NCBI RefSeq assembly: GCF_001458695.1
Contig: NZ_LN885086.1
Span: forward strand, 2,190,001-2,222,000
Direction of reading: 5' to 3'
DNA from: Candidatus Nitrospira inopinata
Lineage (GTDB): Bacteria > Nitrospirota > Nitrospiria > Nitrospirales > Nitrospiraceae
Length of the DNA: 32,000 nucleotides
In this document: one piece after another, positions 6,515 to 25,726 of the stretch
How positions within the stretch are numbered: position 1 is the stretch's first letter
Layout: each line of letters begins with the position of its first letter
Translations under genes and position numbers: made by a program
The notes under the pieces: generated by a model
Seen by the model: only the letters and a program-made list of their open reading frames with translations
What the model was told of the DNA's origin: nothing
The model's database searches: none

Positions 6515-6515
6515 A

Positions 6516-7556: not shown

Positions 7557-8923
7557 ACGCCTGTGCTCTCCTGGTGAGAGATCGCAAACCGCTTGTTCCA
7601 TCAGTATTTGAACGAGCCATCGATCGTCGACAGAGGATCATTCTCTACGGGGCCGGCAAGATCGGACAACGGGTCGCGGCGGCTCTCAGGTGGTTCGGTC
7701 ATTCGCCGGCGTTCTTCTGGGATCGATGTGCCGATCTGTTGGGAAGCGAGCGCAATGGCATAGAGGTCTTGCTCCCCGATTTGTCGACGATGTCGCTCGA
7801 AGAACGAGCTGATTGCCTCGTCGTTGTCACCATTTTTTCAGAGAATGTCGCCGAGCGGATCAGACAAGAATTGCTTTGTGCGGGATACCCGAATGTCTTG
7901 TCCGACAAGACGACCATCGGCGGCCTGCTTGAAGCGGAATGTGTATCCCGTCTCCAAGCCGGCCGTTTCGAGTTCCAGCTCATGCGGTGTCATATCTGTC
8001 CGGTCGTCAGTGATGTGAGAAGCCGATGCGAGATCTTCGAACGTCATGTACGGGATTGCTTCGTCAGGGGCGTCGAAGCGCAGTTCGTTCCCGAAGTGGT
8101 CGTACCCTCGATGGGAGTTCTGATTTCCAATAAGTGCACGATGACATGCGAAGGCTGCAACCACCTCCGGGATCATTATGCACCGGACGATCATCGGGAT
8201 CTTGCTCCCGATCAGGTGATCGAGGATCTGAGGAAACTTCTTTCGGCGGTGGATCTGGTCAACAAACTTGTGCTGGTCGGCGGAGAGGCGTTGCTCCATC
8301 CGCGCGTCGAGGAGATCATCAATCAGCTCCTCCGGCTGCCCAAAGTAGGGATTCTCCAGATCATTACCAATGGAACGGTCGTGCCCAAAAGCCGCCGCGT
8401 GTTCGAACTGCTGGCGAGTCCTCGCGTCATCGTCGAGATCAGCGATTACGGCGATCATGTGCCGGAGCCCTTGCGGCCCAATGTCTCGCGGTTCATCGAG
8501 CACCTGGAGAATCATCGGATCCAGTATCGGCGGATTCGGACGTTGCAGTGGTTTGATTTCGGAGGATTTGAGGATCGAGGCTACACGGTAGAGGAAATTC
8601 GGCGTGTCTATCGCACCTGCTGTTTCCTGTCTCACGACCTTTTCGACGGCCGGTTGTACAAGTGCAGCAGAAGCGCTTATGGAACCGTGATCGGCAAGGT
8701 GCCGAACTATCCAGGTGACTACGTCGACATCCGAAGCCTGGATCGGCAGTCGCTGAGGATGCGTCTGATCGAGTTTCTATCGTTGGAATACGTGGAGGCG
8801 TGTCGTCACTGTAACGGAGCCTCCGCCGCGTTGACGATGGAAGCGGGCAGGCAGATCGTCGTCGTGAAAAGGGGGCATCTTCGCCGGGATGGTTCCGGGT
8901 TGGAAGCGGCCGCCGGCGTTTAG
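7553..8923 (+). CDS. radical SAM enzyme with N-terminal Rossmann-like module and Cys-rich (SPASM/twitch-like) C-terminus
   Basis: ATGA overlap with the GT2 gene. 'ILYGAGKIGQRV' is a nucleotide-binding-type N-domain (aa ~25-130). CX3CX2C motif 'CTMTCEGC' at 8135-8158. C-terminal cysteines occur in 'CCFLSHD..YKCSRS..CRHCNG'. Confidence 0.8.
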   Translation: MNACALLVRDRKPLVPSVFERAIDRRQRIILYGAGKIGQRVAAALRWFGHSPAFFWDRCADLLGSERNGIEVLLPDLSTMSLEERADCLVVVTIFSENVAERIRQELLCAGYPNVLSDKTTIGGLLEAECVSRLQAGRFEFQLMRCHICPVVSDVRSRCEIFERHVRDCFVRGVEAQFVPEVVVPSMGVLISNKCTMTCEGCNHLRDHYAPDDHRDLAPDQVIEDLRKLLSAVDLVNKLVLVGGEALLHPRVEEIINQLLRLPKVGILQIITNGTVVPKSRRVFELLASPRVIVEISDYGDHVPEPLRPNVSRFIEHLENHRIQYRRIRTLQWFDFGGFEDRGYTVEEIRRVYRTCCFLSHDLFDGRLYKCSRSAYGTVIGKVPNYPGDYVDIRSLDRQSLRMRLIEFLSLEYVEACRHCNGASAALTMEAGRQIVVVKRGHLRRDGSGLEAAAGV

Positions 8924-8948
8924 CCGCGCGTACGGAAAGGAGACCGTC

Positions 8949-9977
8949 ATGAAAGCGCAATTGAAACCCCGGATCAACCTCGACCATCGGACGCCGCTCC
9001 AGGACGTGATTCCACTTTCCACGCCGATGGTGCTGTTCGTCGATCCCGTCGATACATGCAATTTTCGTTGTACCTTTTGTCCGACGGGAGACCGAGAGCT
9101 GATCAAATCCACGGGTCGGTGGCAGGGGCGAATGTCGCTCGATTTGTTTAAAAAGATCATCGACGACCTGGCCGAATTCGAGCAGCCGATCAAAGTCCTG
9201 CGTCTGTACAAGGAAGGCGAGCCGCTCCTACACACGCAGTTCGCCGAGATGGTGTGGTATGCCAAGCGGAGCGGCCGCGTGGAATATATCGACACGACGA
9301 CCAATGGCTATTTGCTGAGTCCGGAGCGGGTGGGGCCGATTCTTGACGCCGGGATCGATCGCATCAACATTTCCGTTGACGGGATGTCGAGCGAACAATT
9401 TTGGCGGTTCACTAAAACCAGGGTCGATTTCGAGAAATACGTCGAGAACATCCGGCATCTCTATGAGCGCAAGGGATCCTGCGAGATCTGCATCAAAATT
9501 CCGGGCGACATCCTGTCCGATGACGACAAACAACGGTTCTTCGACACCTTCGGCGACTACGCGGACCGAATCTCAATCGAAAACTTCGCGCCCTGCTGGC
9601 CGGAATTCGACGTGGAAGCGCGCAGCGGCATCGCGATCACGGAGGGGATTTACGGCAACCCGATCAAGGAAGTGTCGGTCTGCCCCTATATTTTTTACTC
9701 CATGGCGGTGAATACCGACGGAACGGTCAGCCTTTGTTTTTTGGACTGGGCCCGCAAGCTCGTCATCGGAGACACACGTCTTCAATCTCTTAAGTCGATC
9801 TGGGACGGCGAGTCGATGCACCGGCATCGAGTCGCCCACTTGAAGGGACGGCGCAAGGACAATCCGACTTGCGCCGACTGCGGCCAGCTCAGCCACTGTC
9901 TGCCGGACGATATCGACGCGTACGCCGCCTCTTTGCTGACGAGAATTGAACGGCCACAAAAAACCGGGAGTCGCTGA
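8949..9977 (+). CDS. radical SAM / SPASM-domain enzyme
   Basis: ATG 8949 lies behind AAGGAG; the track start 8889 is an upstream extension. CX3CX2C motif 'CNFRCTFC' at 9057-9080. The C-terminal 'CPYIFYSMAVNTDGTVSLCFLDW ... CADCGQLSHC' is typical of a SPASM auxiliary-cluster region. Confidence 0.85.
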   Translation: MKAQLKPRINLDHRTPLQDVIPLSTPMVLFVDPVDTCNFRCTFCPTGDRELIKSTGRWQGRMSLDLFKKIIDDLAEFEQPIKVLRLYKEGEPLLHTQFAEMVWYAKRSGRVEYIDTTTNGYLLSPERVGPILDAGIDRINISVDGMSSEQFWRFTKTRVDFEKYVENIRHLYERKGSCEICIKIPGDILSDDDKQRFFDTFGDYADRISIENFAPCWPEFDVEARSGIAITEGIYGNPIKEVSVCPYIFYSMAVNTDGTVSLCFLDWARKLVIGDTRLQSLKSIWDGESMHRHRVAHLKGRRKDNPTCADCGQLSHCLPDDIDAYAASLLTRIERPQKTGSR

Positions 9978-11668
9978 TGTCAAGCACCGGACGAGAAGAA
10001 CGGATCCTGTTCATCATTCCACCCTATTTCAACGTGGACGACTACATGGGAGGCGATCGCGCGAACGTGTTGCCGTCGTTCACGATCCCATACGGCATTC
10101 TGTCTCTGGATGCCTATCTGAAGGCTCATTGCACGGTGCCGGTGACAGTCGACATTCTGGATTTGAATTTGTCGCTGCGCCAAGCCGTGGAGACGGGAAA
10201 CGTCTCGCGAATCCAGGCCGTGTTCGATGAACTGATCAGAGAGCGGGTTCAAATCGCTCGGCCCGTGATCATCGGAATTTCGGCGCTGTTTAACGTGTCG
10301 TTCCGATACATGGGACATATTTCCGCCGTGGCGAAAGCCGCCGCCCCCGGTGCGTTGATCGTCGCGGGTGGAGGGCTTCCGTCAGCCGGGTTTCGGCAAG
10401 TGTTGGAACATTGCCCGGCCATTGACGCGGTATGTCGGGGAGAAGGAGAGATCCCGTTGCGCGATCTGATCGAAGCCGGTGACCGAGCCGATCTGTTGGA
10501 GCGGCACCCTTCATGGATGACCAGAGGAGGAATTGCGGCGGGTAAAATTCCCGCCCATACGTTCGTCGAGAACCTCGATGACATTCCCATGCTCGATTAC
10601 GGCTTAGTCGATTTGGACGATTACAACTCCCGTTCTATCGACAAACGATACAGCGGCCAGCCGAAACGCGAGATGGCGATCCATACCTCACGGGGCTGTC
10701 CTTTTCTTTGCGTGTTTTGCGCGAACCCCTCGTTGCACGGGGCGGATGTGCGGGCCATGAGTGTGGCGCGCGTCGCCGCCGAGGTGCGTCGGATGAAAGA
10801 ACAGTGGGGCATGACCGTGTTGCTGATCGAGGACGACCACTTCTTTTTCGACAAAGCGCGGGCGAAGCAGGTCTTGCGTGAATTGATCGATCTCGGCGTG
10901 CGCGTGGAGTTTCCCAATGGAATCGCCGTCTATGCCATCGACGAGGAGGTGGCGAGCCTGTTCCAACAAGCCGGAGTGTCCACGGTGGCGTTGGCGGTCG
11001 AATCAGGATCCGACTACGTTCTTCATCGCATCATCAAGAAGCCGTTGAAGACCAGCCTCGTGAAAGGCAAGGTGGAACTCTTGCGAAAATACGGGGTGCA
11101 AAGCCACGTCTTCATCGTGCTGGGGCTGCCGGGAGAAATGGACGAGCACCGGCTGCAAACGCTCGATCTGCTGCTGGACGTCGGGTTCGACTGGGTGCAC
11201 GTCTTTTGCGCCGTGCCGATCTTGGGCAGCCGTCTCTACGACATCTGCGTGACCAACGGATACGTGGACACGGGAGATTTCCTTGATCACGTCAACACCA
11301 AATCGGTCATCCGGGCCCCCGGCGTCGATCCGGAAGCCGTTCAGGCGTTCGCCTATGAGATGAACCTGCTCGTCAACTTCGTCCACAACTACAACCTGAG
11401 GGTCGGACGATTCGAAACGGCGGCCAAGTACTTTGAGAACGTGACCGGCAAATATCCCGACCATGCGCTGGCCCATCATGCCCTCGCCAGGGCTTACGAG
11501 GGGCTCGGGCGAGAAGAGGAGGCGGACCGCTGTCGCCGTCGCTATCAAGACATCATCGAGCGGGATGAGTGGTGGAGGGAACGAGCGCGGAAATATGGTT
11601 TGTCGGACGGCGGAGTCTCGGCGGCGGTCCCGCTCGCCGGGAATCACCCTGCCCTCATAGAGTCATGA
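9977..11668 (+). CDS. cobalamin-binding-domain (class B) radical SAM enzyme with C-terminal TPR-like tail
   Basis: ATG shares its A with the upstream TGA (TGATG at 9975-9979). The N-terminal region ('ILFIIPPYF ... VIIGISALF ... IVAGGGLPS ... CRGEGE') is B12-binding-type. CX3CX2C motif 'CPFLCVFC' at 10697-10720. The C-terminal 'AKYFENVTGKYPDHALAHHALARAYEGLGREEEADRCRRRYQDI' is TPR-like. Confidence 0.85.
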   Translation: MSSTGREERILFIIPPYFNVDDYMGGDRANVLPSFTIPYGILSLDAYLKAHCTVPVTVDILDLNLSLRQAVETGNVSRIQAVFDELIRERVQIARPVIIGISALFNVSFRYMGHISAVAKAAAPGALIVAGGGLPSAGFRQVLEHCPAIDAVCRGEGEIPLRDLIEAGDRADLLERHPSWMTRGGIAAGKIPAHTFVENLDDIPMLDYGLVDLDDYNSRSIDKRYSGQPKREMAIHTSRGCPFLCVFCANPSLHGADVRAMSVARVAAEVRRMKEQWGMTVLLIEDDHFFFDKARAKQVLRELIDLGVRVEFPNGIAVYAIDEEVASLFQQAGVSTVALAVESGSDYVLHRIIKKPLKTSLVKGKVELLRKYGVQSHVFIVLGLPGEMDEHRLQTLDLLLDVGFDWVHVFCAVPILGSRLYDICVTNGYVDTGDFLDHVNTKSVIRAPGVDPEAVQAFAYEMNLLVNFVHNYNLRVGRFETAAKYFENVTGKYPDHALAHHALARAYEGLGREEEADRCRRRYQDIIERDEWWRERARKYGLSDGGVSAAVPLAGNHPALIES

Positions 11669-12951
11669 GAGTCTTGCACATCACTGCCCATCTTGGCGGC
11701 GGGGTTGGCAAGGTCTTGTCCGGCGTGGTCGCCGAATCGGCGCGACGCCGTGACGACACGCGCCATACCATTGCCTGTCTCGAGGTGCCGGAGAAGCGCA
11801 CGTTTCTCGACCGTGTCCTTTCATGGGGAGGAGAGGTGCTGATCGCTCCCTCGTTCGACCGCCTGGCCGAAGAGGTCGACCGCGCCGATATCGTGCAAGT
11901 GGAATGGTGGCACCATCCCACTGTCGCGGGATGGCTGTGTTCCGGCGTTCTGCCTTCCATGCGATTGCTCGTCTGGTGCCACGTGTCCGGGCTGTATCCT
12001 CCCGTTATTCCCCCCGAGTTTGTTTTGTCGGTTCATCGATTTCTTTTTACGTCGCCGTGCAGTTGGGAGCACCCGACCTTGGCGGCCTTGCGGCCCAGGC
12101 TCAAGGGGCGAGCGGAGGTGGTTTTTGGCTCAGGCGGGTTTGATGATCTGCCTCCTCCGCCGGAGCGGGTCTTTGAAACGTCGCTACAAGTAGGGTACGT
12201 CGGCTCCCTCAATTTCTCCAAACTTCATCCGCGCATTTTGGACTTTGTTCAGGCCGCCCGTCTGCCGAACTTTCGATTGGCTCTTGTTGGTGATCCGGTG
12301 ACGGGGCAGCAATTGATAGCCGAGGCGGCGATGATGGGGGTAAGAAACCGGCTTGACGTGCGGGGGTATCGCGAACAGGTTTCGGCGGAGTTAGTTGGGT
12401 TCGATGTTTTCGCCTATCTTCTCAACCCATTCCATTACGGCACAACGGAAAATGCGTTGCTTGAAGCGATGGCCATGGGAGTTGTGCCGATCGTACTCAA
12501 CAATCCAGCGGAGCGATGTGTGGTCTCGCACGGGGAAACCGGCGTGATTGTCAATGGTCCTTCTCAATTCGCCGATGCGCTGGACTGGCTGGCGGCTCAC
12601 CCCTTGGAACGAGCAAGGTTGTCGGCGAACGCCAGTCGTCTGGTGCGCCGGCGCTTTGCCATTGGTCGTACTGTTGCGGGATTGGAACATCATTATCAGC
12701 GGTTGTTCACCGAGCCAAAACGCTCCTTCGACTTTCGGCCGATCTTCGGAGAAGAACCGGCCGATTGGTTTCGGTCTTGCCAGGGAGATGAAGCCTGGAG
12801 GTTTCAGCAGAATGGCATGCTGCATGACGCCGCCAGGCGAGGGCCCGCGGTGCTCTACGAACGGACCAAGGGGTCCGTTTTTCACTACCATGCCGTCTAT
12901 CAGGCGGACGAACGGTTGGCTCGATGGGCGAAACAGCTCGATGCCGCATGA
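11665..12951 (+). CDS. GT-B fold glycosyltransferase (GT4/GT1-like)
   Basis: ATG 11665 overlaps the upstream stop (ATGA); the track start 11569 is an extension. 'MRVLHITAHLGGGVGKVL' is a typical N-terminus and 'GTTENALLEAMAMGVVPIV' is the E-x7-E donor-binding motif. Confidence 0.8.
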   Translation: MRVLHITAHLGGGVGKVLSGVVAESARRRDDTRHTIACLEVPEKRTFLDRVLSWGGEVLIAPSFDRLAEEVDRADIVQVEWWHHPTVAGWLCSGVLPSMRLLVWCHVSGLYPPVIPPEFVLSVHRFLFTSPCSWEHPTLAALRPRLKGRAEVVFGSGGFDDLPPPPERVFETSLQVGYVGSLNFSKLHPRILDFVQAARLPNFRLALVGDPVTGQQLIAEAAMMGVRNRLDVRGYREQVSAELVGFDVFAYLLNPFHYGTTENALLEAMAMGVVPIVLNNPAERCVVSHGETGVIVNGPSQFADALDWLAAHPLERARLSANASRLVRRRFAIGRTVAGLEHHYQRLFTEPKRSFDFRPIFGEEPADWFRSCQGDEAWRFQQNGMLHDAARRGPAVLYERTKGSVFHYHAVYQADERLARWAKQLDAA

Positions 12952-14117
12952 CATCGTTCCACTCGCTCCCGACCATCGCCATGGCGCGCGAACTTCTGTG
13001 GCAATTGACATCGTCCCGTTCCCCGGTCCGTCATCAGCCTGTCGATAAGCCGCTCATCCTGTATGGATCGGGGAAACTGGGCCGAATGGCGGGAGAACTG
13101 TTCAGGCGGCTCAATATTCCCATTGCCTATGCCGTGGATCGTGCTTGTCGCACAGGCGATCGGCTGCTCGACGACGTCCCCGTCATCCGACCAGAGGCCG
13201 CAGATCAGATCGATCGGGAAACCTGCCTGATCGCGGTCTGCATCGTCACCGCCCCCTATGAACCCATTCGAGACGAACTCGCGGCCATGGGGTGGCGGCA
13301 TATTTTTCCCGTCTATGATGTCTTGGATGCCTATCGCGATCGACTCCCCCTCGGCAACGGCTGGTTTGCGGGAGTCTTGAATGATGAAGACATCAATCAG
13401 ATCGACGAGGTTCTTGCAGGTTGGAGCGACGACTGGTCGCGAGCCGCCCACCTTCAGGTTTTGGCCTGGCGTTTGCACAGAATGGAATGGGAATTTGACC
13501 GGGCGCCGGTGTGTATCGAAGATCGATACTTCATTGAGCCTGTGCGGCTGGCGATGGGATTACGGGAGCGCTTTCTTGATGCAGGCGCCCACCATGGGAC
13601 GGTGATCGCCAAGTGGTTGGAACTGGTTCGTCATCAATGTGACAGCGTGATGGCCGTCGAGGCCGATCGCGATAATGTGGCGCACTTGCGAAGATGGGTG
13701 GCGACACTACCCCGCGCGATTCGGGAAACAATCATGATCAGGGATTGTGCGTTGGCAGAAGAAAGCGCCGAGAAACACTATCAGCAAGGGTGGGGATTTT
13801 CGTCACGCATTGACCCGCGTGCGGCCTGGCCTGTTCAAGCCTTTCGTCTTGATGATCTCGATTTCCCTCTGACTTTCGGGAAAATCCATTTGGAAGGCGG
13901 CGAACTCAATGCGCTCCGGGGAGGAACCGAGACGCTCCGCCGCTGTCGTCCCATTTTGGCGATCACGACCTATCACAACGCCGATGGATTGTGGCGCATT
14001 CCCCGATTCCTGATGGAGACGTTGCCGGATTATCGATTTCTCATGAGATTGCACGGGTGGTGCGGGACCGGCTCGGTCGTCTATGCCATTCCGAATGAAA
14101 GGAGGAGTGTGGCGTAA
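12948..14117 (+). CDS. FkbM-family SAM-dependent methyltransferase with N-terminal Rossmann-like module
   Basis: ATG 12948 overlaps the upstream stop (ATGA). The N-domain 'LILYGSGKLGRMAGELFRRL' is homologous to the N-domain of the 7553 radical SAM gene. FkbM-like blocks are 'FLDAGAHHGT' and 'KIHLEGGELNALRG'. Confidence 0.75.
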   Translation: MTSFHSLPTIAMARELLWQLTSSRSPVRHQPVDKPLILYGSGKLGRMAGELFRRLNIPIAYAVDRACRTGDRLLDDVPVIRPEAADQIDRETCLIAVCIVTAPYEPIRDELAAMGWRHIFPVYDVLDAYRDRLPLGNGWFAGVLNDEDINQIDEVLAGWSDDWSRAAHLQVLAWRLHRMEWEFDRAPVCIEDRYFIEPVRLAMGLRERFLDAGAHHGTVIAKWLELVRHQCDSVMAVEADRDNVAHLRRWVATLPRAIRETIMIRDCALAEESAEKHYQQGWGFSSRIDPRAAWPVQAFRLDDLDFPLTFGKIHLEGGELNALRGGTETLRRCRPILAITTYHNADGLWRIPRFLMETLPDYRFLMRLHGWCGTGSVVYAIPNERRSVA

Positions 14118-17100
14118 TGGGCTTGATCAATATTCTCCTCCCGACCATTCGGTTTTCCGCCATGGCCAAGGACATCATGGTCCAACTCTTCAGGGCAGGA
14201 GAAGAGAACCGCGACGTTCACGTCACCATCGCCGATGGGCAGGAGAATGAAGAAAAGAAGAGGTGGATCCTCGCGTCCGCCGATTTGCTGAGCAAAGACG
14301 GCCGGTTTGCCTACATCGGGTTACAGAACCCCACCGAACGGTTGTACCGAGCCGCGCAGATCGAATCGGAATGGGTTCTGCTGGTCGCGGACGACGACCT
14401 CTTCAGCATCAACTATTTGCGATGCGCTCTCGACGCCGTCCGAACGGCGGCGCCGGCCGTGACGGCGTTCGTGCCCCGCCTTTATCTTAGTTACTCGCCC
14501 AAGACGCACCTGCTGTATCGGCTGAAACCGATCAATGGACCCGACCAGCGCGAGAGACTCACGTCCCTCTTCACCCAAGGTCACAACGGTCTCTTGACCT
14601 TCGGAGTGATGCGGCGCCGTTTGTTTTGGGAGTGGATGGATTTTGTCAGAACGAAACCCATCTGGCCGTCCTATAGTGATCAATTGTTCGTCAGCTACCT
14701 GGCGATGAAGGGGTGGCTGCTGCCCATGGCCGAGGAGTGTGCCATTCTCAAGGACGATGGCGACTGGCATGATCCGCCCCAGGCGATCCGCAAGGACGCG
14801 CGCAGCTATCAAGAAGAGTTTTTGACATTGTTTCATGAGGTGTTTTGGACGGCCGACCTGTTTGCGTTTTTGCGAGAGCGTGGTTTGGAAGACGAGGCCG
14901 TTCCCGCGGTGATGGGCAGAGTCAGGACGCTATTGGGCAACGGTGCCGCGAGTTTCCCTCTTCGTCTGTCTGTCTTGGACATCAAGCCCAGCCCCCGTGT
15001 GCGGGAAGCAAAGGAGTTTGTTGAACAACTGGCTGCCGAGGCGAACACCATGCTCGCCAAATCTCTCCATGAGCAGATCCGGTTTCTTGAGGAGATAGTC
15101 GAGGTGAGCCGGTCGTTGGGCTGGCAGTCTGGCCCCGCTTCCGCCGTGCCCGAACAAGACGAGCATGGAGGGAAAACGACTCCTGTCAGTCCCTTCATCA
15201 GTTCGGGAACGGAGAGCGGCGCGAGAGAAGCCGATCCGACGGTGTCGGTGATCGTGCCGTGCTACGCCCAGGCCGATTTTCTGGCCGAAGCGATTGAAAG
15301 TGTCGTGACCCAAACCTTCAGTGACTGGGAATGTCTCATCGTCGATGACGGCAGTCCCGACCATACCGCCCAAGTCGCCCGTGATCTTATCGCTCGGTAT
15401 CCCGACAAGCGGATTCGATTGATCCGCAAGACGAACGGCGGACTGTCCGACGCGCGCAACGCGGGTATCCGGGAGGCCCGCGGGCGATACATTCTTCCCC
15501 TTGACGCCGACGATCGGTTGGATCCGCGCTATTTGGCGGAGACCGTGCCGATTCTGGAAAGAAATCCCGACATCGCCATCGTCTATGTTGATGAACGGAC
15601 CTTTGGAGAGACGGAGGGCGTTCATCGTAAAGGCGTTGTGACATTGGAGAGTCTTCTCGTCGGCAATGTCCATGACTACTGCTCGTTGTACCGTCGCTCG
15701 GTGTGGGAACGGGTGGGAGGTTACTCTCCGGCTATGTATCTGGGCGCCGAGGATTGGTGCTTTTGGATCGGCGCAGCCAAACTTGGGTTTCGATCCTACC
15801 ACGTCGGACAACCGCTATTCTGGTATCGCAGAAGGCGCGGCACGATGGTGGAGCGGGTCCAGGCGAATATGAACGTGATCAAGGCGCACATTGTGTTCCA
15901 TTATCCGGACTTGTTTATCGAGTCTGGCAAAGAGAAGGCGAGGCGCATTCTCTCGTCGCCGAGTGAAGCAGTCCGCGAGCAGTTGAAAAAAGCTCGTGCG
16001 CTTCATCCTGACAATGAGCTGTTGGAAGTGTTTTCGCGGTTCGTGCAGGGCGACGAGGAAAGCGGCAAGCCGACTGCACTTCGGGGAAATGGAACGTGGG
16101 CGAACGAACGGGAGGCAAGATGGGTCGAAGTCGCGACCTTTCTTGAGCAGATCCTTCGAGAGATTCGCCGGAACGATCCCAACCGGCCCTTGCGGATTCT
16201 CGACGTCGGTTGCGGTTCCGGTTGGCTGACCGATCGTGTCTCGATGTACGGATCTTGCGAGGGAGTGGATCCCGATCCCCTCGCGATCGCCGACGCTCGC
16301 CGGCAGTTCCCGCATCTTCGATTTGAAGCCTGTGAGGCAGGCCGGCTTCCTCCGAGCCTCAAGACCGCCTCTTACGACATCGTCCTCTGCTCGCGGATGC
16401 TGGAGGGGATTAGACAGGAGATGCGGGATGCCATCTGCAAACAACTGACCCGTCTGTTGAAGCCGAACGGCCATCTTATTTTAACGATGCGGCGCGGCGA
16501 GATATGGGAACAATGGAGCAAAGCTGGGCTTCCCTCTAACCAAGCAGAAACGTGGATGACGGAGGCACAAGTCTCGGAATTGGTGGCTGCCCATGGTTTC
16601 CGACCGATCCAAGTTGAGAGACTCTATGTCGAGATTCCAGAACGTCGGTATGTTCCCGCTCCAACTCCGGCTGATCTGAAATCGAGAGAGCTGATTCCGC
16701 TGGATCAAGTATGGGTCTGCCGGTTGGGCATGCCCGCAAGCCCGTCGACTGTTCTCGGGCAGCCGACGGTCTCCGTGATCGTACCGACCTGCAATAGACC
16801 GGACAGGCTGCGCGAAACGTTACAGAGCGTGCTGGCTCAGAGTTACCGGGACTTTGAAATCATCGTCGTCAATGATGGAAATGTCGATGTGAGCTCCGTG
16901 ATCGGCGCGCTCAATACCGACGACCGCATCACCCTCATCAAACACGATCGCAACCGCGGGCTTGCCGCCGCGCGCAACACCGGTATCAGGGTGGCCAGGG
17001 GAAAATACATTGCCTATCTGGACGACGACGACCGCTATTTGCCCGATCATTTGGAGACGTTGGTGACCGTGTTGGAGAAGGGGCAATGCAAAGCTGCGTA

Positions 17101-19156
17101 TAGCGATGCGTGGCGCGTCCATGAACAATACGAGGAAGGACGATACGTCGAAGTCGGTCGCGACGTGCCCTATTCGCAGGATTTCAGCTTTCCCCACTTG
17201 TTGGTGATGAATTACTTCCCTGTTCTCTGCGTCATGCACGAGCGGAGTTGCCTAGAGGAAGTAGGGTTTTTCGACGAATCGTTGTTCGCGCACGAAGACT
17301 GGGATCTCTGGATTCGTATGGCCGAAAAGTTCCCCTTTATCCATGTAAAAAAAGTCACGGCGGAATTTACGTGGAGAACGGACGGCAGCTCCATGACGAG
17401 CAGTACCCGACACACCTACTACAGGACCACGGACATCATCTATCAAAAGTACAGGCCTTTGGCCGAGCGATTCCCCGGTGTGCTGGCCGCGCAAGAATGG
17501 CAGTCGGCAGAGTTCAAGAAACAATTCCAATCCGATCGGTTCGTCTGTTCCATCATCATTCCGGTGCACAACGGGCTTGATTTGACCAAACAGTGTCTGA
17601 CCGCGCTGGCGTCCGCAACGACAGATGTGCGTTACGAGGTGATCCTCGTGGACAACGGTTCGACGGATGGAACGGCGGCGTTCCTGCAAACCCTCCGGGG
17701 CGATGTGCGAATCATCCGAAACGATGAGAATCTTGGGTTTGCCAAGGCGTGCAATCAGGGCGCCAAAGCGGCGCGGGGGAGGTATCTGGTTTTCTTGAAC
17801 AACGACACGGTTCCACAACCCAATTGGTTGAGCCCCTTGGTGCAAGAAGTGGAAGAACATCCCGAAGTCGGTATGGTTGGCAGTAAGCTCTTGTATCCTG
17901 ACGGCACTGTTCAACATGCGGGGGTGGTGTTCTCTCGGGATGGGGCGCCATATCACGTCTATCGAAGAGTATCGGCGGATTCGCCGGCCGTCGGCAAGCG
18001 GCGGGAGTTCCAGGTCGTTACTGCGGCGTGCTTGTTGATTCGTCGTGACCTGTTCGAGGCCGTCGGTGGATTCGATGAAGCATTCGTCAATGGTTTCGAG
18101 GACGTGGATCTCTGCCTCAAGGTGCGCAGGAGGGGGGCGCAGGTCGTGTACCAGCCGCGCAGCGCGCTGATCCATCTTGAAGGCCAGACCCTCGGCCGCA
18201 AGGCGGGAGAATCCGACAATGACCGTCTGTTGAGGGAACGGTGGAACAACCTTCTGTGGCTGGAAGATGAAGATCTCCACTATCACACTGACGGATACAA
18301 ATTGGTCGGAGATCTCTCTGGCGCGAACAGGGCGACGCGCGTTGTTCCTCTGACCGACGTGCATGACCGGGCTTGTTGGGCCCATGTCGCGGCGGCTCAG
18401 GCGGCCGCGCTCAAGAAAGATTGGGAAGCCGTCAGGCGCGAGATCCATCTGGTGGATGATTGGCCTAATGATCGCTTAGTCCTTTTATGGGGGGCCAAAG
18501 TCGCCGAGCGATTGAAAGACCCGGTGTGCCAGGTGCGGTTTCTGGCTCGGGCCGTGGAGCTGGGGGCCACATCGGATGAGCGCTTTAGCCTAGCTCGTTT
18601 GTTGCTCGAACAGGGGGATCTGGTCGGGACCGATCAGCAGCTTCGCGCTGCGCTGCGTTTGCAGACGGATCACCCCGAAGGTCTCTTCCTCCAGGGAGTC
18701 CTCTGCATGCAGCGAGAGCAGTATGGGGAGGCCGAGTCGTCGTTCGCTCGTGCGCTCAAAGCTGGCGCCAATCGCCGCAAATGTCTCATGGGCATGGGGA
18801 TGGCAGCCATGGGTCGGTCCTATCCACAAGGAGCGTGGGAGAAGTTTTGCGAGGTCCTGACGGATCATCCCGATGACCCAGAGGCGATCCATTGGCTGCT
18901 GCGCGCGGGCACGGCGCAGAACCGGTGGGAGGAATTGAGCCGTTACGTCAGGGCCTATGTGGAGCGCAATCCCGGCGACCTTGCGACGCGATTTGCGCTT
19001 ACCGGCGTGTTGCTCCGCGCCGACCGGATCGAAGAGGCGAGGAAAGAGCAGGAGGTGATCCGGGCGTTGGATCCGGCGTATGACGGTCTGGCCGAATTGG
19101 AGGAGGCGATCTCGAAGAAAGAGGCCATATTGGCCGTGGAAGCGACGGAGGGATAA
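14117..19156 (+). CDS. 1679-aa multidomain glycan assembly protein: GT2-like N-domain, GT2, class I SAM methyltransferase, GT2, GT2, C-terminal TPR repeats
   Basis: TAATG overlap with the FkbM gene. The GT2-like N-domain ('INILLPT', 'LLVADDDLF') spans ~14117-15170. GT2 #1 'VSVIVPCYAQADFLAEAIESVVTQTFSDWECLIVDDGSPD' begins ~15236. The methyltransferase 'ILDVGCGSGWLT' is at 16196. GT2 #2 'VSVIVPTCNRPDRLRETLQSVLAQSYRDFEIIVVNDG' starts at 16763. GT2 #3 'CSIIIPVHNGLDLTKQCL..VILVDNGSTDGT' starts at 17540. TPR-like repeats span ~18435-19153. Confidence 0.85.
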   Translation: MGLINILLPTIRFSAMAKDIMVQLFRAGEENRDVHVTIADGQENEEKKRWILASADLLSKDGRFAYIGLQNPTERLYRAAQIESEWVLLVADDDLFSINYLRCALDAVRTAAPAVTAFVPRLYLSYSPKTHLLYRLKPINGPDQRERLTSLFTQGHNGLLTFGVMRRRLFWEWMDFVRTKPIWPSYSDQLFVSYLAMKGWLLPMAEECAILKDDGDWHDPPQAIRKDARSYQEEFLTLFHEVFWTADLFAFLRERGLEDEAVPAVMGRVRTLLGNGAASFPLRLSVLDIKPSPRVREAKEFVEQLAAEANTMLAKSLHEQIRFLEEIVEVSRSLGWQSGPASAVPEQDEHGGKTTPVSPFISSGTESGAREADPTVSVIVPCYAQADFLAEAIESVVTQTFSDWECLIVDDGSPDHTAQVARDLIARYPDKRIRLIRKTNGGLSDARNAGIREARGRYILPLDADDRLDPRYLAETVPILERNPDIAIVYVDERTFGETEGVHRKGVVTLESLLVGNVHDYCSLYRRSVWERVGGYSPAMYLGAEDWCFWIGAAKLGFRSYHVGQPLFWYRRRRGTMVERVQANMNVIKAHIVFHYPDLFIESGKEKARRILSSPSEAVREQLKKARALHPDNELLEVFSRFVQGDEESGKPTALRGNGTWANEREARWVEVATFLEQILREIRRNDPNRPLRILDVGCGSGWLTDRVSMYGSCEGVDPDPLAIADARRQFPHLRFEACEAGRLPPSLKTASYDIVLCSRMLEGIRQEMRDAICKQLTRLLKPNGHLILTMRRGEIWEQWSKAGLPSNQAETWMTEAQVSELVAAHGFRPIQVERLYVEIPERRYVPAPTPADLKSRELIPLDQVWVCRLGMPASPSTVLGQPTVSVIVPTCNRPDRLRETLQSVLAQSYRDFEIIVVNDGNVDVSSVIGALNTDDRITLIKHDRNRGLAAARNTGIRVARGKYIAYLDDDDRYLPDHLETLVTVLEKGQCKAAYSDAWRVHEQYEEGRYVEVGRDVPYSQDFSFPHLLVMNYFPVLCVMHERSCLEEVGFFDESLFAHEDWDLWIRMAEKFPFIHVKKVTAEFTWRTDGSSMTSSTRHTYYRTTDIIYQKYRPLAERFPGVLAAQEWQSAEFKKQFQSDRFVCSIIIPVHNGLDLTKQCLTALASATTDVRYEVILVDNGSTDGTAAFLQTLRGDVRIIRNDENLGFAKACNQGAKAARGRYLVFLNNDTVPQPNWLSPLVQEVEEHPEVGMVGSKLLYPDGTVQHAGVVFSRDGAPYHVYRRVSADSPAVGKRREFQVVTAACLLIRRDLFEAVGGFDEAFVNGFEDVDLCLKVRRRGAQVVYQPRSALIHLEGQTLGRKAGESDNDRLLRERWNNLLWLEDEDLHYHTDGYKLVGDLSGANRATRVVPLTDVHDRACWAHVAAAQAAALKKDWEAVRREIHLVDDWPNDRLVLLWGAKVAERLKDPVCQVRFLARAVELGATSDERFSLARLLLEQGDLVGTDQQLRAALRLQTDHPEGLFLQGVLCMQREQYGEAESSFARALKAGANRRKCLMGMGMAAMGRSYPQGAWEKFCEVLTDHPDDPEAIHWLLRAGTAQNRWEELSRYVRAYVERNPGDLATRFALTGVLLRADRIEEARKEQEVIRALDPAYDGLAELEEAISKKEAILAVEATEG

Positions 19157-19163: not shown

Positions 19164-20363
19164 ATGGCAAGGGCGCTGGTCGTTCAACTCGCCCGGCTCG
19201 GCGATCTGATCCAGACGATCCCGGCGATCATGGCGCTCAGGATGGCCCATCCGACCGATGGCCTCGATCTCCTGTGTCCGTCCTCCCTGGCGCCGATCGG
19301 GCGGCTGATACCGGGTGTTGACAGGGTTTTGGAATGGGATGGGTTCGTCTGGCACCGGTGGGCGGATGAAGCGTCGGTCGATTTTTTGCCGGCGCACCTT
19401 GAGCGGGCCACGAAACAGCTTGAGGCTCTGGCAACGCACCGGTATGGGACGGCCTATGTTCTGAACCATCATCGTCGGGCATTGTTGGCCGGTTCCTTGC
19501 TGGCTGACGAAGTGAGAGGACCGTTGCTCGACGGTCCTCTCGGGACCGCTCTGTCTCCCTGGGCTTCGTATGTGCGAGACGTCGCGCATACGGGGCATGG
19601 CTGCCGTGTGCATTTGGCCGATGCGCTCTGCGGGCTGTGCGGAGTCTCTCCTTCCGGGAACCCTCCGGCTCTGATCAACACGTCGCACCCGTTGCCGGCC
19701 GACTTGGAATCGCTCGGCAGTCACGGAGAGCCGTGGGTCGGGCTCATCGTCGGAGCCGGAGCGGTTGAACGGCTGGTGCCGATCGACGTTTGGAAACAAT
19801 TGGTCATCAGGTTTCTGGAGACGACCCCGTCCGGCCGCGTCATCCTGCTCGGCCGGGAGCGGGAGCGAGGGAGGCAGCTTCACGATCTCCTGCCGCCTTT
19901 GCTGCTTGGTCGAGTCTGGGATGTCACAGGCCGGATCTCGCTACATGACCTGGTTGCCGTCATGAGCCGCTGTCACCTTGTCGTCGGCGCTGATACGGGC
20001 CCGCTGCATCTGGCTGCCGCTGTCGGAGTCAGAGTGATCGGCTGGTACTTTGCGCGGGCTCGTGTGCATGAGACCGGCCCCTATGGCGTCGGCCATGTGG
20101 TGTGGCAAGCGGAGGATTCAAATGGGAAAGGCCACAGTGAGCGAACCGATGTCAGACCGCTTCAGTGGCCGATAGAGGAAACGGCTGGTCTTCTGACGCA
20201 GGGCCGGGAATTGGCAACCGCGCCCATGGTATCCGGCTGGTCAGTCTGGACCAGCCACTGCGACCGATGGGGCGCCTATTACACCAAGATGGGTGACCCA
20301 TCCATCTCCCCTCCGGAGCGTGAAGCACTGTGGAGCAAACTGTCGTCCTTGGTCTGCCGGTGA
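19164..20363 (+). CDS. family-9 (heptosyltransferase-like) GT-B glycosyltransferase
   Basis: ATG 19164 lies 7 nt after the upstream stop; the track start 19080 is an extension. 'ALVVQLARLGDLIQTIPAI' and 'LVVGADTGPLHLAAAVGVRVIG' are the two GT9 signature blocks. Confidence 0.8.
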   Translation: MARALVVQLARLGDLIQTIPAIMALRMAHPTDGLDLLCPSSLAPIGRLIPGVDRVLEWDGFVWHRWADEASVDFLPAHLERATKQLEALATHRYGTAYVLNHHRRALLAGSLLADEVRGPLLDGPLGTALSPWASYVRDVAHTGHGCRVHLADALCGLCGVSPSGNPPALINTSHPLPADLESLGSHGEPWVGLIVGAGAVERLVPIDVWKQLVIRFLETTPSGRVILLGRERERGRQLHDLLPPLLLGRVWDVTGRISLHDLVAVMSRCHLVVGADTGPLHLAAAVGVRVIGWYFARARVHETGPYGVGHVVWQAEDSNGKGHSERTDVRPLQWPIEETAGLLTQGRELATAPMVSGWSVWTSHCDRWGAYYTKMGDPSISPPEREALWSKLSSLVCR

Positions 20364-20374
20364 GTGAGGGACTT

Positions 20375-22192
20375 GTGAGCGTCTTGCGAGAAAATCTTGA
20401 ACGGCTTGCCAACACAGATCCGGCACTTGCGGACGCTGTGCGATCTTCATCAGGAGGTGTGCTCTCGCTCCTTCCATCGCGCGAGGGAACGGTCACGGCG
20501 AAATGCGGCGATCGATGGATTCACAGTTCGTACGATCCTCGTAAAGAAGCCCGCTCCTGGGCTGACGCGCAATTCAAAGACTGGAGAGATGAGGAAGTCG
20601 GTGTGGTGCTCGGTGTCGGGCTCTTGTATCACGTGGAGGCGTTGGCGTCGCTGAAGCAAGACGGCCGCAGGTTGGCGGTGCTTGTTCCGGATCCGTCCGT
20701 GCTCAAAGACGCGCTTGGCGCTCGTGCGCTTGGTCGCTGGCTCGAAGCCGTTGAGTGGATCTGGGGCCATCCGTCGGACATGGCGGACCGTTTGGCCGGC
20801 CTTGCGAGCCCCTTGCGGTTCATGACCTATGCGCCGGCAGCCGGCCTGCATGAAGCCGTTCACCGTGAGGTGGAGGCATCTTTGCGCCGGATGGTGGCGG
20901 CCCGGCAGGGGGGACAACTGCGGATCGCCGTCGTGGGTCCGATTTACGGCGGATCATTGCCGATCGGCCGCTATGTGACCTCGGCGCTGGAGTCGCTTGG
21001 GCATCGCGCGACCTGGATCGACCACAGTGTTCATCATGCAGGCTACCGGCGGTTCGATTCCTACCGCGACGTCCGCCATCGTCTAACGATGCAGAGCCGC
21101 TTCGCGGAGCTCTTGAGTTTGGATACGGTCGCTCGATTGGCCGAGGATCCGCCCGACCTGGTGCTTGCCGTCGCCCAGGCGCCGCTGACGGCCGGCGTGT
21201 TGGAGCACGTGCGGAAGAAGAAATTTCCCACCATCATGTGGTTCGTGGAAAATTATCGACATTTGACCTATTGGCGGCAACTGGCATCGAGCTATGACTA
21301 TTGGTTTGTGATTCAGCGGGGAGACTGTGTCGAAGCGCTGAGAAGGGCCGGCGCGCGGCAGGTGCACTATCTTCCTGTTGCGGCCGATGTGGACGTACAC
21401 GCGCCCTGTTCTCTCACCGACGCCGAACGAGCCGAATACGGCGCCGATGTCTCGTTCGTGGGGGCCGGTTACCGGAACCGACGTATGCTCTTGCCTCGCT
21501 GGTTGTCGCCCGAATGGACCTTCAAGCTGTGGGGAACCGAATGGGAAGGAGCGGCCGATCTGACTTCGGTGTTGCAGCGAGGCGGCGCCCGCATCGACAT
21601 CGAGACCTGCCGAAAGGTATTCAACGCCACCACCATCAATTTGAATCTCCATTCATACAACGGACCATCGTTGGACCCCCAGGCGGACTTTGTGAATCCA
21701 CGGACGTTCGAACTGGCTGCTTGTGGGGCGTTTCAATTGACCGACGAACGATCATTGTTGCCCGAGTTGTTTACTGACCAGGAAATTATTCGATTCCGAT
21801 CCGCTGATGAAGTGCCGCAGTTGATCCGCCGGTGGCTTCATGACGACCACAAAAGGAGGGAGGTGGCTGAGGCCGCACGGCGGCGAGTCCTGGCCCACCA
21901 TACCTATCGCCATCGGATGGAAGATCTATTGGGGGTGATCGGCCTTCGGCAGCCGAATCGAATCGGCGCCATCTTGCAAGGCGATCGCAATGCGGGGGCT
22001 CTGGCCGCTCGGCCCGAGACTCCGCCGGAGTTGGCGGCGCTCCTGGGTCGATTTCCCCCCAATCAGCGGGTCGAACTGAAGGATGTGGCTGACAACATTC
22101 GGGCCCGCGGCGCCGGCCGTCGCTTGGCTCGCGAGGAATTGCTCATTCTTTTGTTGGATAGTTACCGCTCGGAAACGAGGGATCTTGTCTGA
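20375..22192 (+). CDS. Maf-N-terminal-like domain fused to CgeB-type (DUF3880 / Glyco_trans_1_2-like) glycosyltransferase
   Basis: GTG 20375 lies 4 nt after GAGGG. Alternative in-frame starts are GTG 20360 (GTGA overlap with the GT9 stop) and GTG 20330. The N-terminus 'LRENLERLANTDPALADAV ... IHSSYDPRKEARSWA ... VVLGVGLLYH' resembles the N-terminal region of Maf flagellin glycosyltransferases. The C-terminus 'INLNLH..NPRTFELAACGAFQLTD..IIRFRSADEV..AARRRVLAHHTYRHRMEDLL' matches CgeB-type GT domains. Confidence 0.65.
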   Translation: MSVLRENLERLANTDPALADAVRSSSGGVLSLLPSREGTVTAKCGDRWIHSSYDPRKEARSWADAQFKDWRDEEVGVVLGVGLLYHVEALASLKQDGRRLAVLVPDPSVLKDALGARALGRWLEAVEWIWGHPSDMADRLAGLASPLRFMTYAPAAGLHEAVHREVEASLRRMVAARQGGQLRIAVVGPIYGGSLPIGRYVTSALESLGHRATWIDHSVHHAGYRRFDSYRDVRHRLTMQSRFAELLSLDTVARLAEDPPDLVLAVAQAPLTAGVLEHVRKKKFPTIMWFVENYRHLTYWRQLASSYDYWFVIQRGDCVEALRRAGARQVHYLPVAADVDVHAPCSLTDAERAEYGADVSFVGAGYRNRRMLLPRWLSPEWTFKLWGTEWEGAADLTSVLQRGGARIDIETCRKVFNATTINLNLHSYNGPSLDPQADFVNPRTFELAACGAFQLTDERSLLPELFTDQEIIRFRSADEVPQLIRRWLHDDHKRREVAEAARRRVLAHHTYRHRMEDLLGVIGLRQPNRIGAILQGDRNAGALAARPETPPELAALLGRFPPNQRVELKDVADNIRARGAGRRLAREELLILLLDSYRSETRDLV

Positions 22193-22265
22193 CGGTTCGT
22201 GAACGAGATGGGGGAAACGAGTGAATCGGGACGGCGTTTCAAACCGGACTGATGACACAGGGCGT

Positions 22266-23930: not shown

Positions 23931-23934
23931 AGGG

Positions 23935-25649: not shown

Positions 25650-25659
25650 GTGACAGAAG

Positions 25660-25698: not shown

Positions 25699-25726
25699 GT
25701 CGGCTGGATTTGGCAATGAGGTTGCC

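Follow-up and report, generated by a model that had tools for sequence, protein, structure and literature searches.

The 1679-residue protein encoded in a 32,000-nucleotide stretch of the Candidatus Nitrospira inopinata genome (hereafter, the window) is probably a glycan-assembly enzyme that is soluble, works in the cytoplasm in several steps, and belongs to a flagellin glycosylation island (probability about 0.68). In related loci, the island immediately precedes the flagellin gene; therefore, the enzyme most likely attaches a complex glycan to the flagellar filament protein. An unstudied “glycosyltransferase” of this organism (P0001) has the identical sequence, and a literature search found no paper on flagellin glycosylation in Nitrospira. 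Flagellin glycosylation islands, flagellin transferases combining GT2 and TPR domains (GmaR), and fusions of two glycosyltransferases (GTs) with a methyltransferase (WsaE and A064R) are already known kinds.

Domain architecture of the 1679-residue protein

The ORF starts with ATG and is uninterrupted (Table 1), as a sequence-only reading of this stretch had called it. Its ATG shares nucleotides with the TAA of the preceding FkbM gene, an overlap that suggests translational coupling of the pair. In the Pfam scan, PF00535 (Glycos_transf_2) scored 354 bits over three stretches. Different GT2-type Pfam models give the best stretches of the three GT2 modules, which start at residues 377, 886, and 1144, where that reading had placed its GT2 signatures (nt ~15236, 16763, and 17540). 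Methyltransf_25 scored 52.3 bits over residues 694–785, revealing a class I methyltransferase, and the motif noticed earlier near nt 16205 is VGCGSG at residues 697–702.

No Pfam family matched the N-domain at the thresholds applied, and no PDB sequence did either; the NCBIfam scan took the whole 1679-residue protein as its only query. The AlphaFold2 model of the domain (pLDDT 89.8, pTM 0.88) matches the GT-A/GT2 enzymes TarP, RmlT, WrtF, TarS, and GtrB in Foldseek (E ~1e-8, probability 1.0), and D92-D93-D94 is invariant in 13 homologues, consistent with the GT2-like N-domain carrying a DDD motif that had been suspected. The closest solved structures to GT2 module 3 are polypeptide O-GalNAc-transferases (E 4e-12, ~21% identity). 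Such a resemblance is widespread among GT2 enzymes, and here it is only a lead.

The C-terminal repeats, described beforehand as TPR-like, are genuine TPRs. When scanned alone, the tail exceeded the Pfam cut-offs for TPR_19 (31.9 bits; cut-off 25) and TPR_14 (26.8 bits; cut-off 23.5), and its family profile matched consensus TPR proteins (E 1.7e-20) and the OGT TPR domain (E 1.7e-8). In the AlphaFold2 model, residues ~1415–1679 form about 14 antiparallel helices with pLDDT >90. The conserved motifs of the tail are RKCLMGMGMA, PDDxEAIHW, and RFAL(A/T)GV. On the combined evidence of the Pfam modules, the N-domain model, and the TPR tail, the protein is composed of four GT-A modules, one methyltransferase, and one TPR tail, and the domain map drawn from the letters was correct as a whole.

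Table 1. Positions of the features in the window (all on the + strand).
Feature	Residues	Nucleotides	Description and basis
Sugar-nucleotide block		1854..6514	glucose-1-P cytidylyltransferase, CDP-glucose 4,6-dehydratase, RfbH-type 3-dehydrase, RmlC-like epimerase, reductase
Tailoring/transfer block		6504..14117	GT2 (350 aa), three radical SAM enzymes, GT4, FkbM methyltransferase
Shine-Dalgarno		14100..14105	AGGAGG, 11 nt upstream of ATG 14117
Whole ORF	1–1679	14117..19156
N-domain	1–346	14117..15154	divergent GT-A fold, then helical bundle; AlphaFold2/Foldseek
DDD of N-domain	92–94	14390–14398	invariant
Linker	347–368	15155..15220	low complexity; pLDDT <50 at model end
GT2 module 1	369–640	15221..16036	motif VDDGSPD; Pfam
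DxD of module 1		15500–15520	LDADDRL
ED motif of module 1		15743–15757
Class I SAM methyltransferase	~655–850	16079..16666	Pfam
VGCGSG	697–702	16205–16222
GT2 module 2	875–1130	16739..17506	Pfam
DxD of module 2		17018–17038	LDDDDRY
GT2 module 3	1138–1395	17528..18301	Pfam
Motif of module 3		17795–17815	LNNDTVP
TPR solenoid		18302..19153	~14 helices; Pfam, family profile, AlphaFold2
Invariant downstream cassette		19165..24614	GT9-like, DUF3880/CgeB-like GT, second GT9-like, 226-aa protein
Sigma-28-like promoter		24700–24725	TAAG-N14-ACCGATAA
fliC		24822–25649	flagellin, 275 aa
fliC, flaG, fliD, fliS		24822..27972

The gene island and its linkage to fliC

The gene belongs to an island of ~23 kb that encodes soluble enzymes and precedes fliC-flaG-fliD-fliS, and the genes from nt 1854 to 27972 are all co-oriented and tightly packed or overlapping. 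Judged by the matches to RfbF (452 bits; cut-off 300), RfbG (437 bits; cut-off 278), and RfbH (716 bits; cut-off 423), the sugar-nucleotide block is a CDP-3,6-dideoxyhexose pathway. The island encodes five GTs besides the 1679-residue protein. The last of its three radical SAM enzymes is B12-binding and has a C-terminal TPR. In the downstream cassette, the first GT9-like gene probably starts at ATG 19165, and the 226-residue protein belongs to no known family. In the flagellin, 35% of residues 136–195 are Ser or Thr.

A convincing transmembrane segment is missing from all 28 ORFs in the window (maximum Kyte-Doolittle 19-residue mean ≤1.77). Therefore, exporters of the ABC or Wzx type are absent from the window, as are a priming phosphoglycosyltransferase, a ligase, and an oligosaccharyltransferase, in agreement with the earlier remark that no exporter is present. 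The flanks of related loci likewise contain no exporter, priming transferase, ligase, or membrane protein.

Are the orthologues always linked to fliC, as the sequence-only reading had asked? A genome scan with the tail profile yielded 132 relatives. We examined the top 80 loci, with each species represented once; almost all carry the name Nitrospira, Nitrospiraceae, or Nitrospirota, and the cultured N. moscoviensis is among them. In all 65 of the Nitrospira species loci with at least 6.5 kb of downstream sequence, fliC lies 5166–6036 nt downstream of the TPR-tailed gene on the same strand, and the Nitrospira gene order is constant: [..GT2_3-TPR]-GT9-CgeB-like-GT9-unknown-fliC-flaG-fliD-fliS. 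Distant multi-GT2 giants adjoin flagellin or flagellar genes in Geobacteraceae, Burkholderiales, Methylomirabilota, and Verrucomicrobiae, while no flagellin lies within 10 kb of the gene in the Brocadia relative. Gene linkage alone is insufficient to name the acceptor.

The N-terminal modules vary between Nitrospira lineages, and the constant part is the last GT2 module with the TPR tail, which occurs in every complete ORF of the Nitrospira loci (1040–2477 residues). The arrangement MT-GT2_2-GT2_3-TPR was found in 37 ORFs and the full architecture in only 4, while in 13 GT2_3-TPR alone is recognisable.

A proposed assembly route and its closest parallels

How would the enzyme build the glycan? 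The neighbouring genes would supply activated sugars, among them CDP-3,6-dideoxyhexose, which would then probably be further C- or O-methylated. Each of the four GT-A modules would add one sugar to an O-linked chain growing on Ser/Thr residues in the short Ser/Thr-rich central region of flagellin, and the embedded methyltransferase would O-methylate one of the sugars, in the manner of WsaE and A064R. Invariably joined to GT2 module 3, the TPR solenoid would be the adaptor that holds the enzyme on a protein partner, most likely flagellin itself, while the N-terminal modules would be exchangeable cassettes that fix the lineage-specific part of the glycan. Assembly would precede flagellin export via the flagellar type III system. 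The flagellin-docking glycan assembly line proposed earlier thus agrees with the domain map, the lack of an exporter, and the fliC linkage; its description as “processive” is unsupported, as four different modules suggest one-sugar additions in sequence.

Docking of the tail onto flagellin is plausible, by analogy with GmaR and FlmG and from the invariant GT2_3-TPR core. GmaR of Listeria monocytogenes is a flagellin O-GlcNAc transferase and anti-repressor, whose TPR is, in the depositors' proposal, the part that recognises flagellin (PMC9638930). Like the 1679-residue protein, it has a GT-A/GT2-type domain directly followed by TPRs, and it acts on flagellin in the cytoplasm. It matches GT2 module 1 weakly (E 9e-4) and is absent from the best 60 PDB matches of the tail profile. 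GmaR differs in having one GT domain, a single GlcNAc, and an extra anti-repressor domain, which the 1679-residue protein, with its four GT-A modules and methyltransferase, lacks. FlmG of Caulobacter and Brevundimonas binds flagellin through its TPR and transfers the sugar with another domain (PMC7591256; bioRxiv 2022.03.25.485807). The analogy with FlmG, also drawn before, holds for the functional logic (two parts, acting in the cytoplasm before export) but not for the architecture: FlmG has an N-terminal TPR and a GT-B catalytic domain that transfers a single sugar from a nonulosonic acid donor (Pse or Leg), whereas our protein has GT-A folds, a C-terminal TPR, and an island with a CDP-deoxyhexose pathway.

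The Pseudomonas islands (P. syringae Fgt1/Fgt2/VioT; OrfN; P. aeruginosa FgtA/PA1091) likewise have GT genes immediately upstream of fliC, and their glycans are deoxyhexose oligosaccharides with a methylated sugar. Their flagellin is similarly short, with glycosylated Ser residues in its central part; the 282-residue P. syringae flagellin carries glycans on six Ser at 143–201 (PMC3927599). The transferases are large or fused (VioT, 1173 residues; PA1091, a GT2 fused to a phosphotransferase). In Pseudomonas, the activities are instead spread over several proteins, with a separate methyltransferase, VioM, and the portions of the sources used here do not mention a TPR. In chlorovirus PBCV-1, A064R and A111/114R carry two or three GT modules in single polypeptides that extend a protein-linked glycan (PMC7826918), with a methyltransferase alongside the GT modules in A064R. 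These proteins are viral and act on an N-linked glycan of a capsid protein, the portion used does not mention a TPR, and their homology to the 1679-residue protein stops at the fold class.

Competing explanations

Less probable, although the most serious competitor, is the possibility that the enzyme elongates or tailors the flagellin glycan without ever recognising flagellin, after an invariant neighbour has started the chain on Ser/Thr. The island's other GTs could contact flagellin, above all the two invariant GT9-like proteins, possible analogues of cytoplasmic protein heptosyltransferases or of the FlmG GT-B domain; the CgeB-like GT is another candidate starter. Consistent with this, both GT9-like proteins, the CgeB-like GT, and the 226-residue protein are as invariant as GT2_3-TPR in the Nitrospira loci, and the GT9-like and CgeB-like proteins could be the tail's partners. 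The tail would then bind the starter enzymes or form an intramolecular scaffold, producing a multi-enzyme complex. The TPR of the B12-binding radical SAM enzyme points the same way, and TPRs here may therefore mediate enzyme–enzyme assembly. In addition, separate giant TPR proteins adjoin flagellin in Burkholderiales and Geobacteraceae, and the GmaR TPR also makes intramolecular contacts. However, the GT-A-then-TPR layout matches that of GmaR, a proven flagellin O-GlcNAc transferase, and module 3 is closest to enzymes that glycosylate peptides. Methylomirabilota encode GT2+TPR proteins of 569 and 643 residues, the latter directly upstream of flagellin, and in the GT9-like proteins neither a TPR nor another recognisable protein-binding domain was found.

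It is improbable that the protein is a polymerase-terminator of a lipid-linked surface polysaccharide (O-antigen, EPS, or S-layer glycan) with export and priming genes elsewhere in the genome, on the model of WsaE, WbdA/WbdD, or Klebsiella O7 ORF6. RfbF/G/H are classically O-antigen genes, and the JGI label of one orthologue is “O-antigen biosynthesis protein”. The combination of several GT2 modules with a methyltransferase follows a logic shared with WsaE and Klebsiella O7 ORF6. WsaE of the Geobacillus stearothermophilus S-layer glycan is, similarly, a soluble, trifunctional protein, with a methyltransferase that caps the chain and two rhamnosyltransferase domains (PMC2943079), but its chain is lipid-linked and depends on Wzm/Wzt for export and on an oligosaccharyltransferase for transfer, and these partners are absent from the window. 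In the ABC-transporter-dependent O-antigen systems WbdA/WbdD, WbbB, and Klebsiella O7 ORF6, a protein may likewise hold one or several of the GT and methyltransferase modules, in varying combinations (PMC11231755). Their defining features, namely a coiled-coil ruler, association with the membrane, and export by Wzm/Wzt, are all absent for our protein in the window and the models. Its inter-domain linkers (at most ~25 residues; longest modelled helix ~21 residues) leave no space for a terminator's ruler. Neither Wzx/Wzy nor any membrane protein occurs in the 32 kb, and the strict placement upstream of fliC also argues against such a role.

Glycosylation of another protein (the FliD cap, hook-associated proteins, or pilins), with the fliC linkage reflecting motility co-regulation only, is very unlikely: the linkage is indeed with the late-gene block fliC-flaG-fliD-fliS rather than fliC alone, but all comparable islands have flagellin as their documented target, and this flagellin carries the expected exposed Ser/Thr-rich segment.

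Domain architecture of the 1679-residue protein

The large gene upstream of fliC is a single unbroken ORF, and its 1679-aa product combines a methyltransferase and a TPR solenoid with four GT-A modules. An AGGAGG sequence precedes its ATG, which overlaps the TAA of the gene upstream. The product is 100% identical to a Candidatus Nitrospira inopinata protein annotated merely as "glycosyltransferase", and full-length orthologues with 57-89% identity are present in other Nitrospira.

The Pfam model PF00535 matches the protein over three stretches with a total of 354 bits (cut-off, 23.3). The starts of GT2 modules 1, 2 and 3, taken as those of the best stretches drawn from different GT2-type Pfam models, agree with the places at which the sequence-only reading had located three GT2 modules. 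The DxD-type (metal/nucleotide) and downstream acidic ED motifs are, respectively, DADD and AED in module 1, DDDD and HED in module 2, and an NND variant and FED in module 3. The stretch between modules 1 and 2 matches Methyltransf_25 (52.3 bits; cut-off, 27), and its VGCGSG loop has the GxGxG pattern of the class I SAM-dependent methyltransferases, as expected from the methyltransferase claimed at this position. The embedded methyltransferase probably acts on a sugar, by O-methylation.

The first 346 residues, hereafter called the "N-domain", have no match in Pfam at the thresholds used and no sequence match in the PDB. Therefore, the class of this domain is recognised through structure prediction only. 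The AlphaFold2 model, built with 13 homologues (pLDDT 89.8, pTM 0.88), has a GT-A fold followed by a helical bundle, and its best Foldseek matches are TarP, RmlT, WrtF, TarS and GtrB (E ~1e-8, probability 1.0). The D92-D93-D94 residues are invariant among the aligned homologues; the GT2-like N-terminal domain with a DDD motif, noticed before any search, is thus upheld by the model. The N-domain represents a rare GT-A family without a Pfam model: it has 86 cluster representatives among 1.84 billion proteins, which are mostly stand-alone proteins of ~340-370 aa, and one of these stand-alone relatives is surrounded by sugar-modifying genes.

The TPR matches of the C-terminal tail are below threshold when the whole protein is scanned with Pfam, while the isolated tail passes the cut-offs (TPR_19, 31.9 versus 25; TPR_14, 26.8 versus 23.5). 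A profile of the tail family matches consensus TPR proteins (E 1.7e-20) and the TPR domain of O-GlcNAc transferase (1.7e-8) in the PDB. In the AlphaFold2 model of aa 1138-1679 (12 sequences, pLDDT 85.2), the GT-A domain is directly followed by ~14 antiparallel helices with pLDDT >90. These three lines of evidence agree on the TPR-like C-terminal repeats that had been suspected, and they extend over ~265 aa. The models of both module 3 and the N-domain match GT-A enzymes with a Foldseek probability of 1.0, and the closest solved structures to module 3, in sequence and in predicted fold, are the polypeptide O-GalNAc-transferases. This likeness would be compatible with a peptide acceptor and is not diagnostic; we did not count it toward peptide specificity, because many GT2 enzymes match these well-represented structures.

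Gene content of the island and its conservation

All of the genes from 1854 to 27972 are closely packed on the + strand. The glycosyltransferase and sugar-synthesis genes are contiguous with fliC, which is the arrangement of a flagellin glycosylation island, in the window as well as in 65 of 65 Nitrospira loci and in four other lineages.

Features of the window (nucleotide positions of the window, or residues of the 1679-aa protein)
Feature	Position	Strand	Remark
HD-GYP-like HD_5 and YcgR-like PilZNR-PilZ proteins	69-1705		Upstream flank
Glucose-1-phosphate cytidylyltransferase, CDP-glucose 4,6-dehydratase, RfbH-type 3-dehydrase, RmlC-like epimerase, reductase (in order)	1854-6514	+	Sugar block; first three above NCBIfam equivalog cut-offs
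Listed dehydratase ORF (519 aa)	2129-3688	+	True start probably near 2640
GT2 (350 aa), three radical SAM enzymes, GT4, FkbM methyltransferase (in order)		+	Between sugar block and 1679-aa protein
B12-binding radical SAM methyltransferase-like enzyme	9977-11668	+	C-terminal TPR
AGGAGG	14100-14105	+	
1679-aa protein	14117-19156	+	
GT2 module 1	aa ~377-526	+	Pfam GT2; start 377
Methyltransferase	aa 694-785	+	Methyltransf_25
VGCGSG loop	aa 697-702 (nt 16205-16222)	+	
GT2 module 2	aa ~886-1094	+	Pfam GT2; start 886
GT2 module 3	aa ~1144-1359	+	Pfam GT2; start 1144
GT9-like, DUF3880/CgeB-like GT, second GT9-like (in order)	19165-23930	+	
226-aa protein	23934-24614	+	Without family
Sigma-28 (FliA)-type promoter-like site	24700-24725		TAAG-N14-ACCGATAA
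Flagellin (275 aa), FlaG, FliD, FliS (in order)		+	End of block
GGDEF protein and PilZ protein	28286-29709		Downstream of fliS
ORF with MCP signalling-domain fragment	29829-30857		

What kind of sugar does the island supply? The combination of RfbF, RfbG and RfbH with an epimerase and a reductase in a flagellar island suggests a CDP-3,6-dideoxyhexose (ascarylose-like) pathway; no E3 reductase (RfbI/AscD-type) was recognised within the window. The listed dehydratase ORF overlaps the cytidylyltransferase gene. The last of the three radical SAM enzymes carries a C-terminal TPR (TPR_19, TPR_16), and L090, a related locus, retains it. Such a domain is unusual for a radical SAM enzyme that tailors sugars, and hints that several enzymes of the island are recruited to one common partner.

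None of the 28 ORFs of the window contains a convincing hydrophobic, transmembrane-like segment. Therefore, the 32 kb hold no exporter, flippase, priming transferase, ligase or oligosaccharyltransferase, and the earlier remark that no exporter is present stands. The island thus encodes soluble enzymes with no lipid carrier, export or ligase machinery within 32 kb, again as in a flagellin glycosylation island. The flagellin belongs to the short type; Ser and Thr account for 35% of its central 60 residues (aa ~136-195).

The genes between the 1679-aa protein and fliC form an invariant cassette, in which two GT9-like (heptosyltransferase-like, GT-B) proteins surround a DUF3880/Glyco_trans_1_2 (CgeB-like) protein. 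The GT9-like enzymes adjoining flagellin could be protein O-glycosyltransferases; sequence searches of the PDB with the GT9-like and CgeB-like proteins returned LPS heptosyltransferases alone, or no match. The 226-aa protein directly 5′ of fliC has no Pfam or NCBIfam match. It occupies the same position in nearly all Nitrospira loci of sufficient length, with 33-82% identity, and one relative has a weak DUF8042 match.

We scanned the TPR-tail profile against one genome per species and obtained 132 relatives. Among the best 80 of the 132 loci, almost all are titled Nitrospira, Nitrospiraceae or Nitrospirota, including the cultured N. moscoviensis NSP M-1 (CP011801). All 65 loci that reach at least 6.5 kb downstream have the flagellin gene 5166-6036 nt away in that direction, on the same strand, and the order in Nitrospira is invariant: module 3-TPR, GT9-like, CgeB-like, GT9-like, the protein without family, fliC, flaG, fliD and fliS. 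The tail-bearing ORFs encode 1040-2477 aa; module 3 and the TPR tail are present in all of them, and the N-terminal remainder is variable. The arrangement methyltransferase-module 2-module 3-TPR is found in 37 ORFs, the full architecture of the window in only four, and 13 share recognisably only module 3 and the TPR tail with the query, while some others possess GT4-type domains.

Less probably, this constant tail has a partner other than flagellin itself: it may dock onto the GT9-like or CgeB-like proteins next door, which are just as invariant, with one of them starting the chain on flagellin. The additional TPR, carried by the radical SAM enzyme, fits a complex-forming role of this kind, as do separate giant TPR proteins in other phyla. 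A target protein other than flagellin is much less probable still. Across the loci, no clear coupling between the tail and FliC is visible in their identities to the query, and all of the island proteins share one phylogeny; for these reasons, mirror-tree and co-variation analyses of the tail versus FliC were dropped.

Distant multi-GT2 giants, which share modules at ~45-55% identity, also occur in flagellar loci. The giant in Geobacteraceae lies beside flagellin, FlaF and FlbT, that in Burkholderiales beside a 1180-aa TPR protein, flagellin and FliD, and that in Verrucomicrobiae immediately after flgK, fliW and csrA. In Methylomirabilota, there are GT2+TPR proteins with lengths of 569 and 643 aa, and the larger lies immediately 5′ of flagellin. 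Flagellar context was found at four of the five informative distant loci (one further contig was too short to judge), but no flagellin lies within 10 kb of the Brocadia relative. The fliC linkage thus holds at all 65 Nitrospira loci with enough downstream sequence, and among distant relatives the association is frequent, not universal. At the Geobacteraceae, Burkholderiales and Methylomirabilota loci (L004, L086, L087), the flagellin neighbours include TPR proteins of 1180 to >2300 aa or the 569-643-aa GT2+TPR proteins, in addition to the multi-GT2 giants.

The fused N-domain coincides with the upstream block of CDP-dideoxyhexose, radical SAM, GT4 and FkbM genes at all four informative loci (the window and the related loci L001, L090 and L091). 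Two other loci (L002, L005) lack the N-domain and possess other sugar genes (GHMP kinase, transketolase, TPP enzyme) in place of the CDP-dideoxyhexose block. The N-domain may be the transferase for the sugar of this block, and the small sample points to a cassette-wise exchange of transferase modules with their own sugar pathways.

Comparison with known systems and proposed function

The TPR domain of FlmG, the flagellin glycosyltransferase to which the protein had been likened, binds flagellin (PMC7591256). In FlmG, the TPR is N-terminal and the C-terminal catalytic domain is GT-B (PMC7591256), whereas here the TPR is C-terminal and the catalytic modules are GT-A. FlmG is associated with Pse/Leg (nonulosonic acid) biosynthesis, in contrast to the RfbF/G/H CDP-hexose pathway here, and nothing in the island comes near the cut-offs of the PseC and LegC models. 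Membership of the FlmG family is ruled out by the differences in fold and domain order.

In GmaR, the flagellin O-GlcNAc transferase of Listeria, the TPR is proposed to recognise flagellin (PMC9638930). GmaR and the module 3-TPR unit share the same order, with a GT-A/GT2 domain directly followed by TPR. However, the only GmaR match is to module 1 (E 9e-4), and GmaR is not among the best 60 PDB matches of the tail profile. GmaR also possesses a C-terminal anti-repressor domain, whereas the tail is wholly TPR-like. Orthology with GmaR is ruled out, as there is neither significant tail homology nor an anti-repressor domain.

Polypeptides combining several GT modules with a methyltransferase, as in WbdA-WbdD, WbbB, WsaE and O7 ORF6, resemble the protein in module content only. 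ABC-transporter-dependent systems are defined by an exporter, a priming enzyme and a coiled-coil ruler (PMC11231755). The Wzm/Wzt exporter and the priming enzyme are absent from the window and the related loci examined, and there is no extended coiled-coil ruler, as the linkers between the domains are at most ~25 aa (domain tiling) and the modelled helices at most 21 aa (AlphaFold2). A lipid-linked polymerase-terminator of the WbdA/WbdD-WsaE style would suit the combination of modules and the rfb-type sugar genes, but is rejected together with the whole ABC-transporter-dependent O-antigen class, since all three defining components are missing from the window and the strict fliC linkage would be unexplained.

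The best-supported reading of the domain content, solubility, island context and invariant fliC linkage in Nitrospira is that the protein is a cytoplasmic assembly enzyme for a flagellin O-glycan, and from these we infer its acceptor, sugars, step order and TPR partner. Each of the GT-A modules, all four of them different, would contribute one sugar to the chain, and the embedded methyltransferase would modify one of these sugars. In P. syringae, separate enzymes build a trisaccharide that contains a 2-O-methylated sugar and decorates six serines in the central part of flagellin (PMC3927599). Fused enzymes for both glycosyl transfer and methylation are represented by WsaE (PMC2943079) and by the chlorovirus A064R (PMC7826918). 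By analogy, the protein would work most like a GmaR-type GT2-TPR flagellin transferase fused to WsaE/A064R-type GT-GT-MT elongation modules, within a Pseudomonas-type flagellar glycosylation island.

A broader proposal, to which we give roughly a one-in-five chance, is that these proteins are glycan assembly lines: the GT and methyltransferase modules combined in a single polypeptide would dictate the flagellin oligosaccharide, and the constant C-terminal GT2-TPR unit would anchor the enzyme on flagellin, so that a single encounter suffices to build the complete chain. Exchange by recombination of N-terminal modules and matching sugar cassettes, such as the N-domain and the CDP-dideoxyhexose block, would then diversify the filament surface between Nitrospira lineages, for example versus phage or grazers, and the same principle would apply in several other phyla.

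Detailed studies of flagellin glycosylation have dealt mostly with pathogens and a handful of model organisms, and comammox and canonical Nitrospira are key nitrification organisms in soils and water treatment; we found no paper on flagellin glycosylation in Nitrospira or other nitrifiers. If the proposal is true, Nitrospira filaments are coated with a complex, methylated, deoxy-sugar glycan that is lineage-specific via module swapping, with relevance to motility, to how cells aggregate and behave in biofilms, and to their recognition by phage or predators. The family, with its constant GT2-TPR core and shuffled N-terminal modules in about 80 species, is a natural series for studying substrate recognition by a cytoplasmic protein O-glycosyltransferase and the ordering of steps in multi-module glycosyltransferases. 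The single gene is of moderate interest, and of more if the picture of a module-shuffling, anchored assembly line holds.

Promoter-like sites and flanking genes

The sigma-28-type promoter-like site is located ~95 nt upstream of the fliC start, and no CCGATAA-like core was found upstream of the glycosylation genes. The scan for sigma-70 promoters and terminators over 12000-26200 gave results at chance level; therefore, operon boundaries were not drawn from it.

Genes related to c-di-GMP bracket the island on both sides, and such flanks recur in related loci. Beyond the downstream pair, the last ORF listed has an N-terminal MCP signalling-domain fragment and a C-terminal, sub-threshold dCache-like region, with no transmembrane segment. 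This order is the reverse of that usual in chemoreceptors, and the ORF may represent a fragment or a frame called in error.
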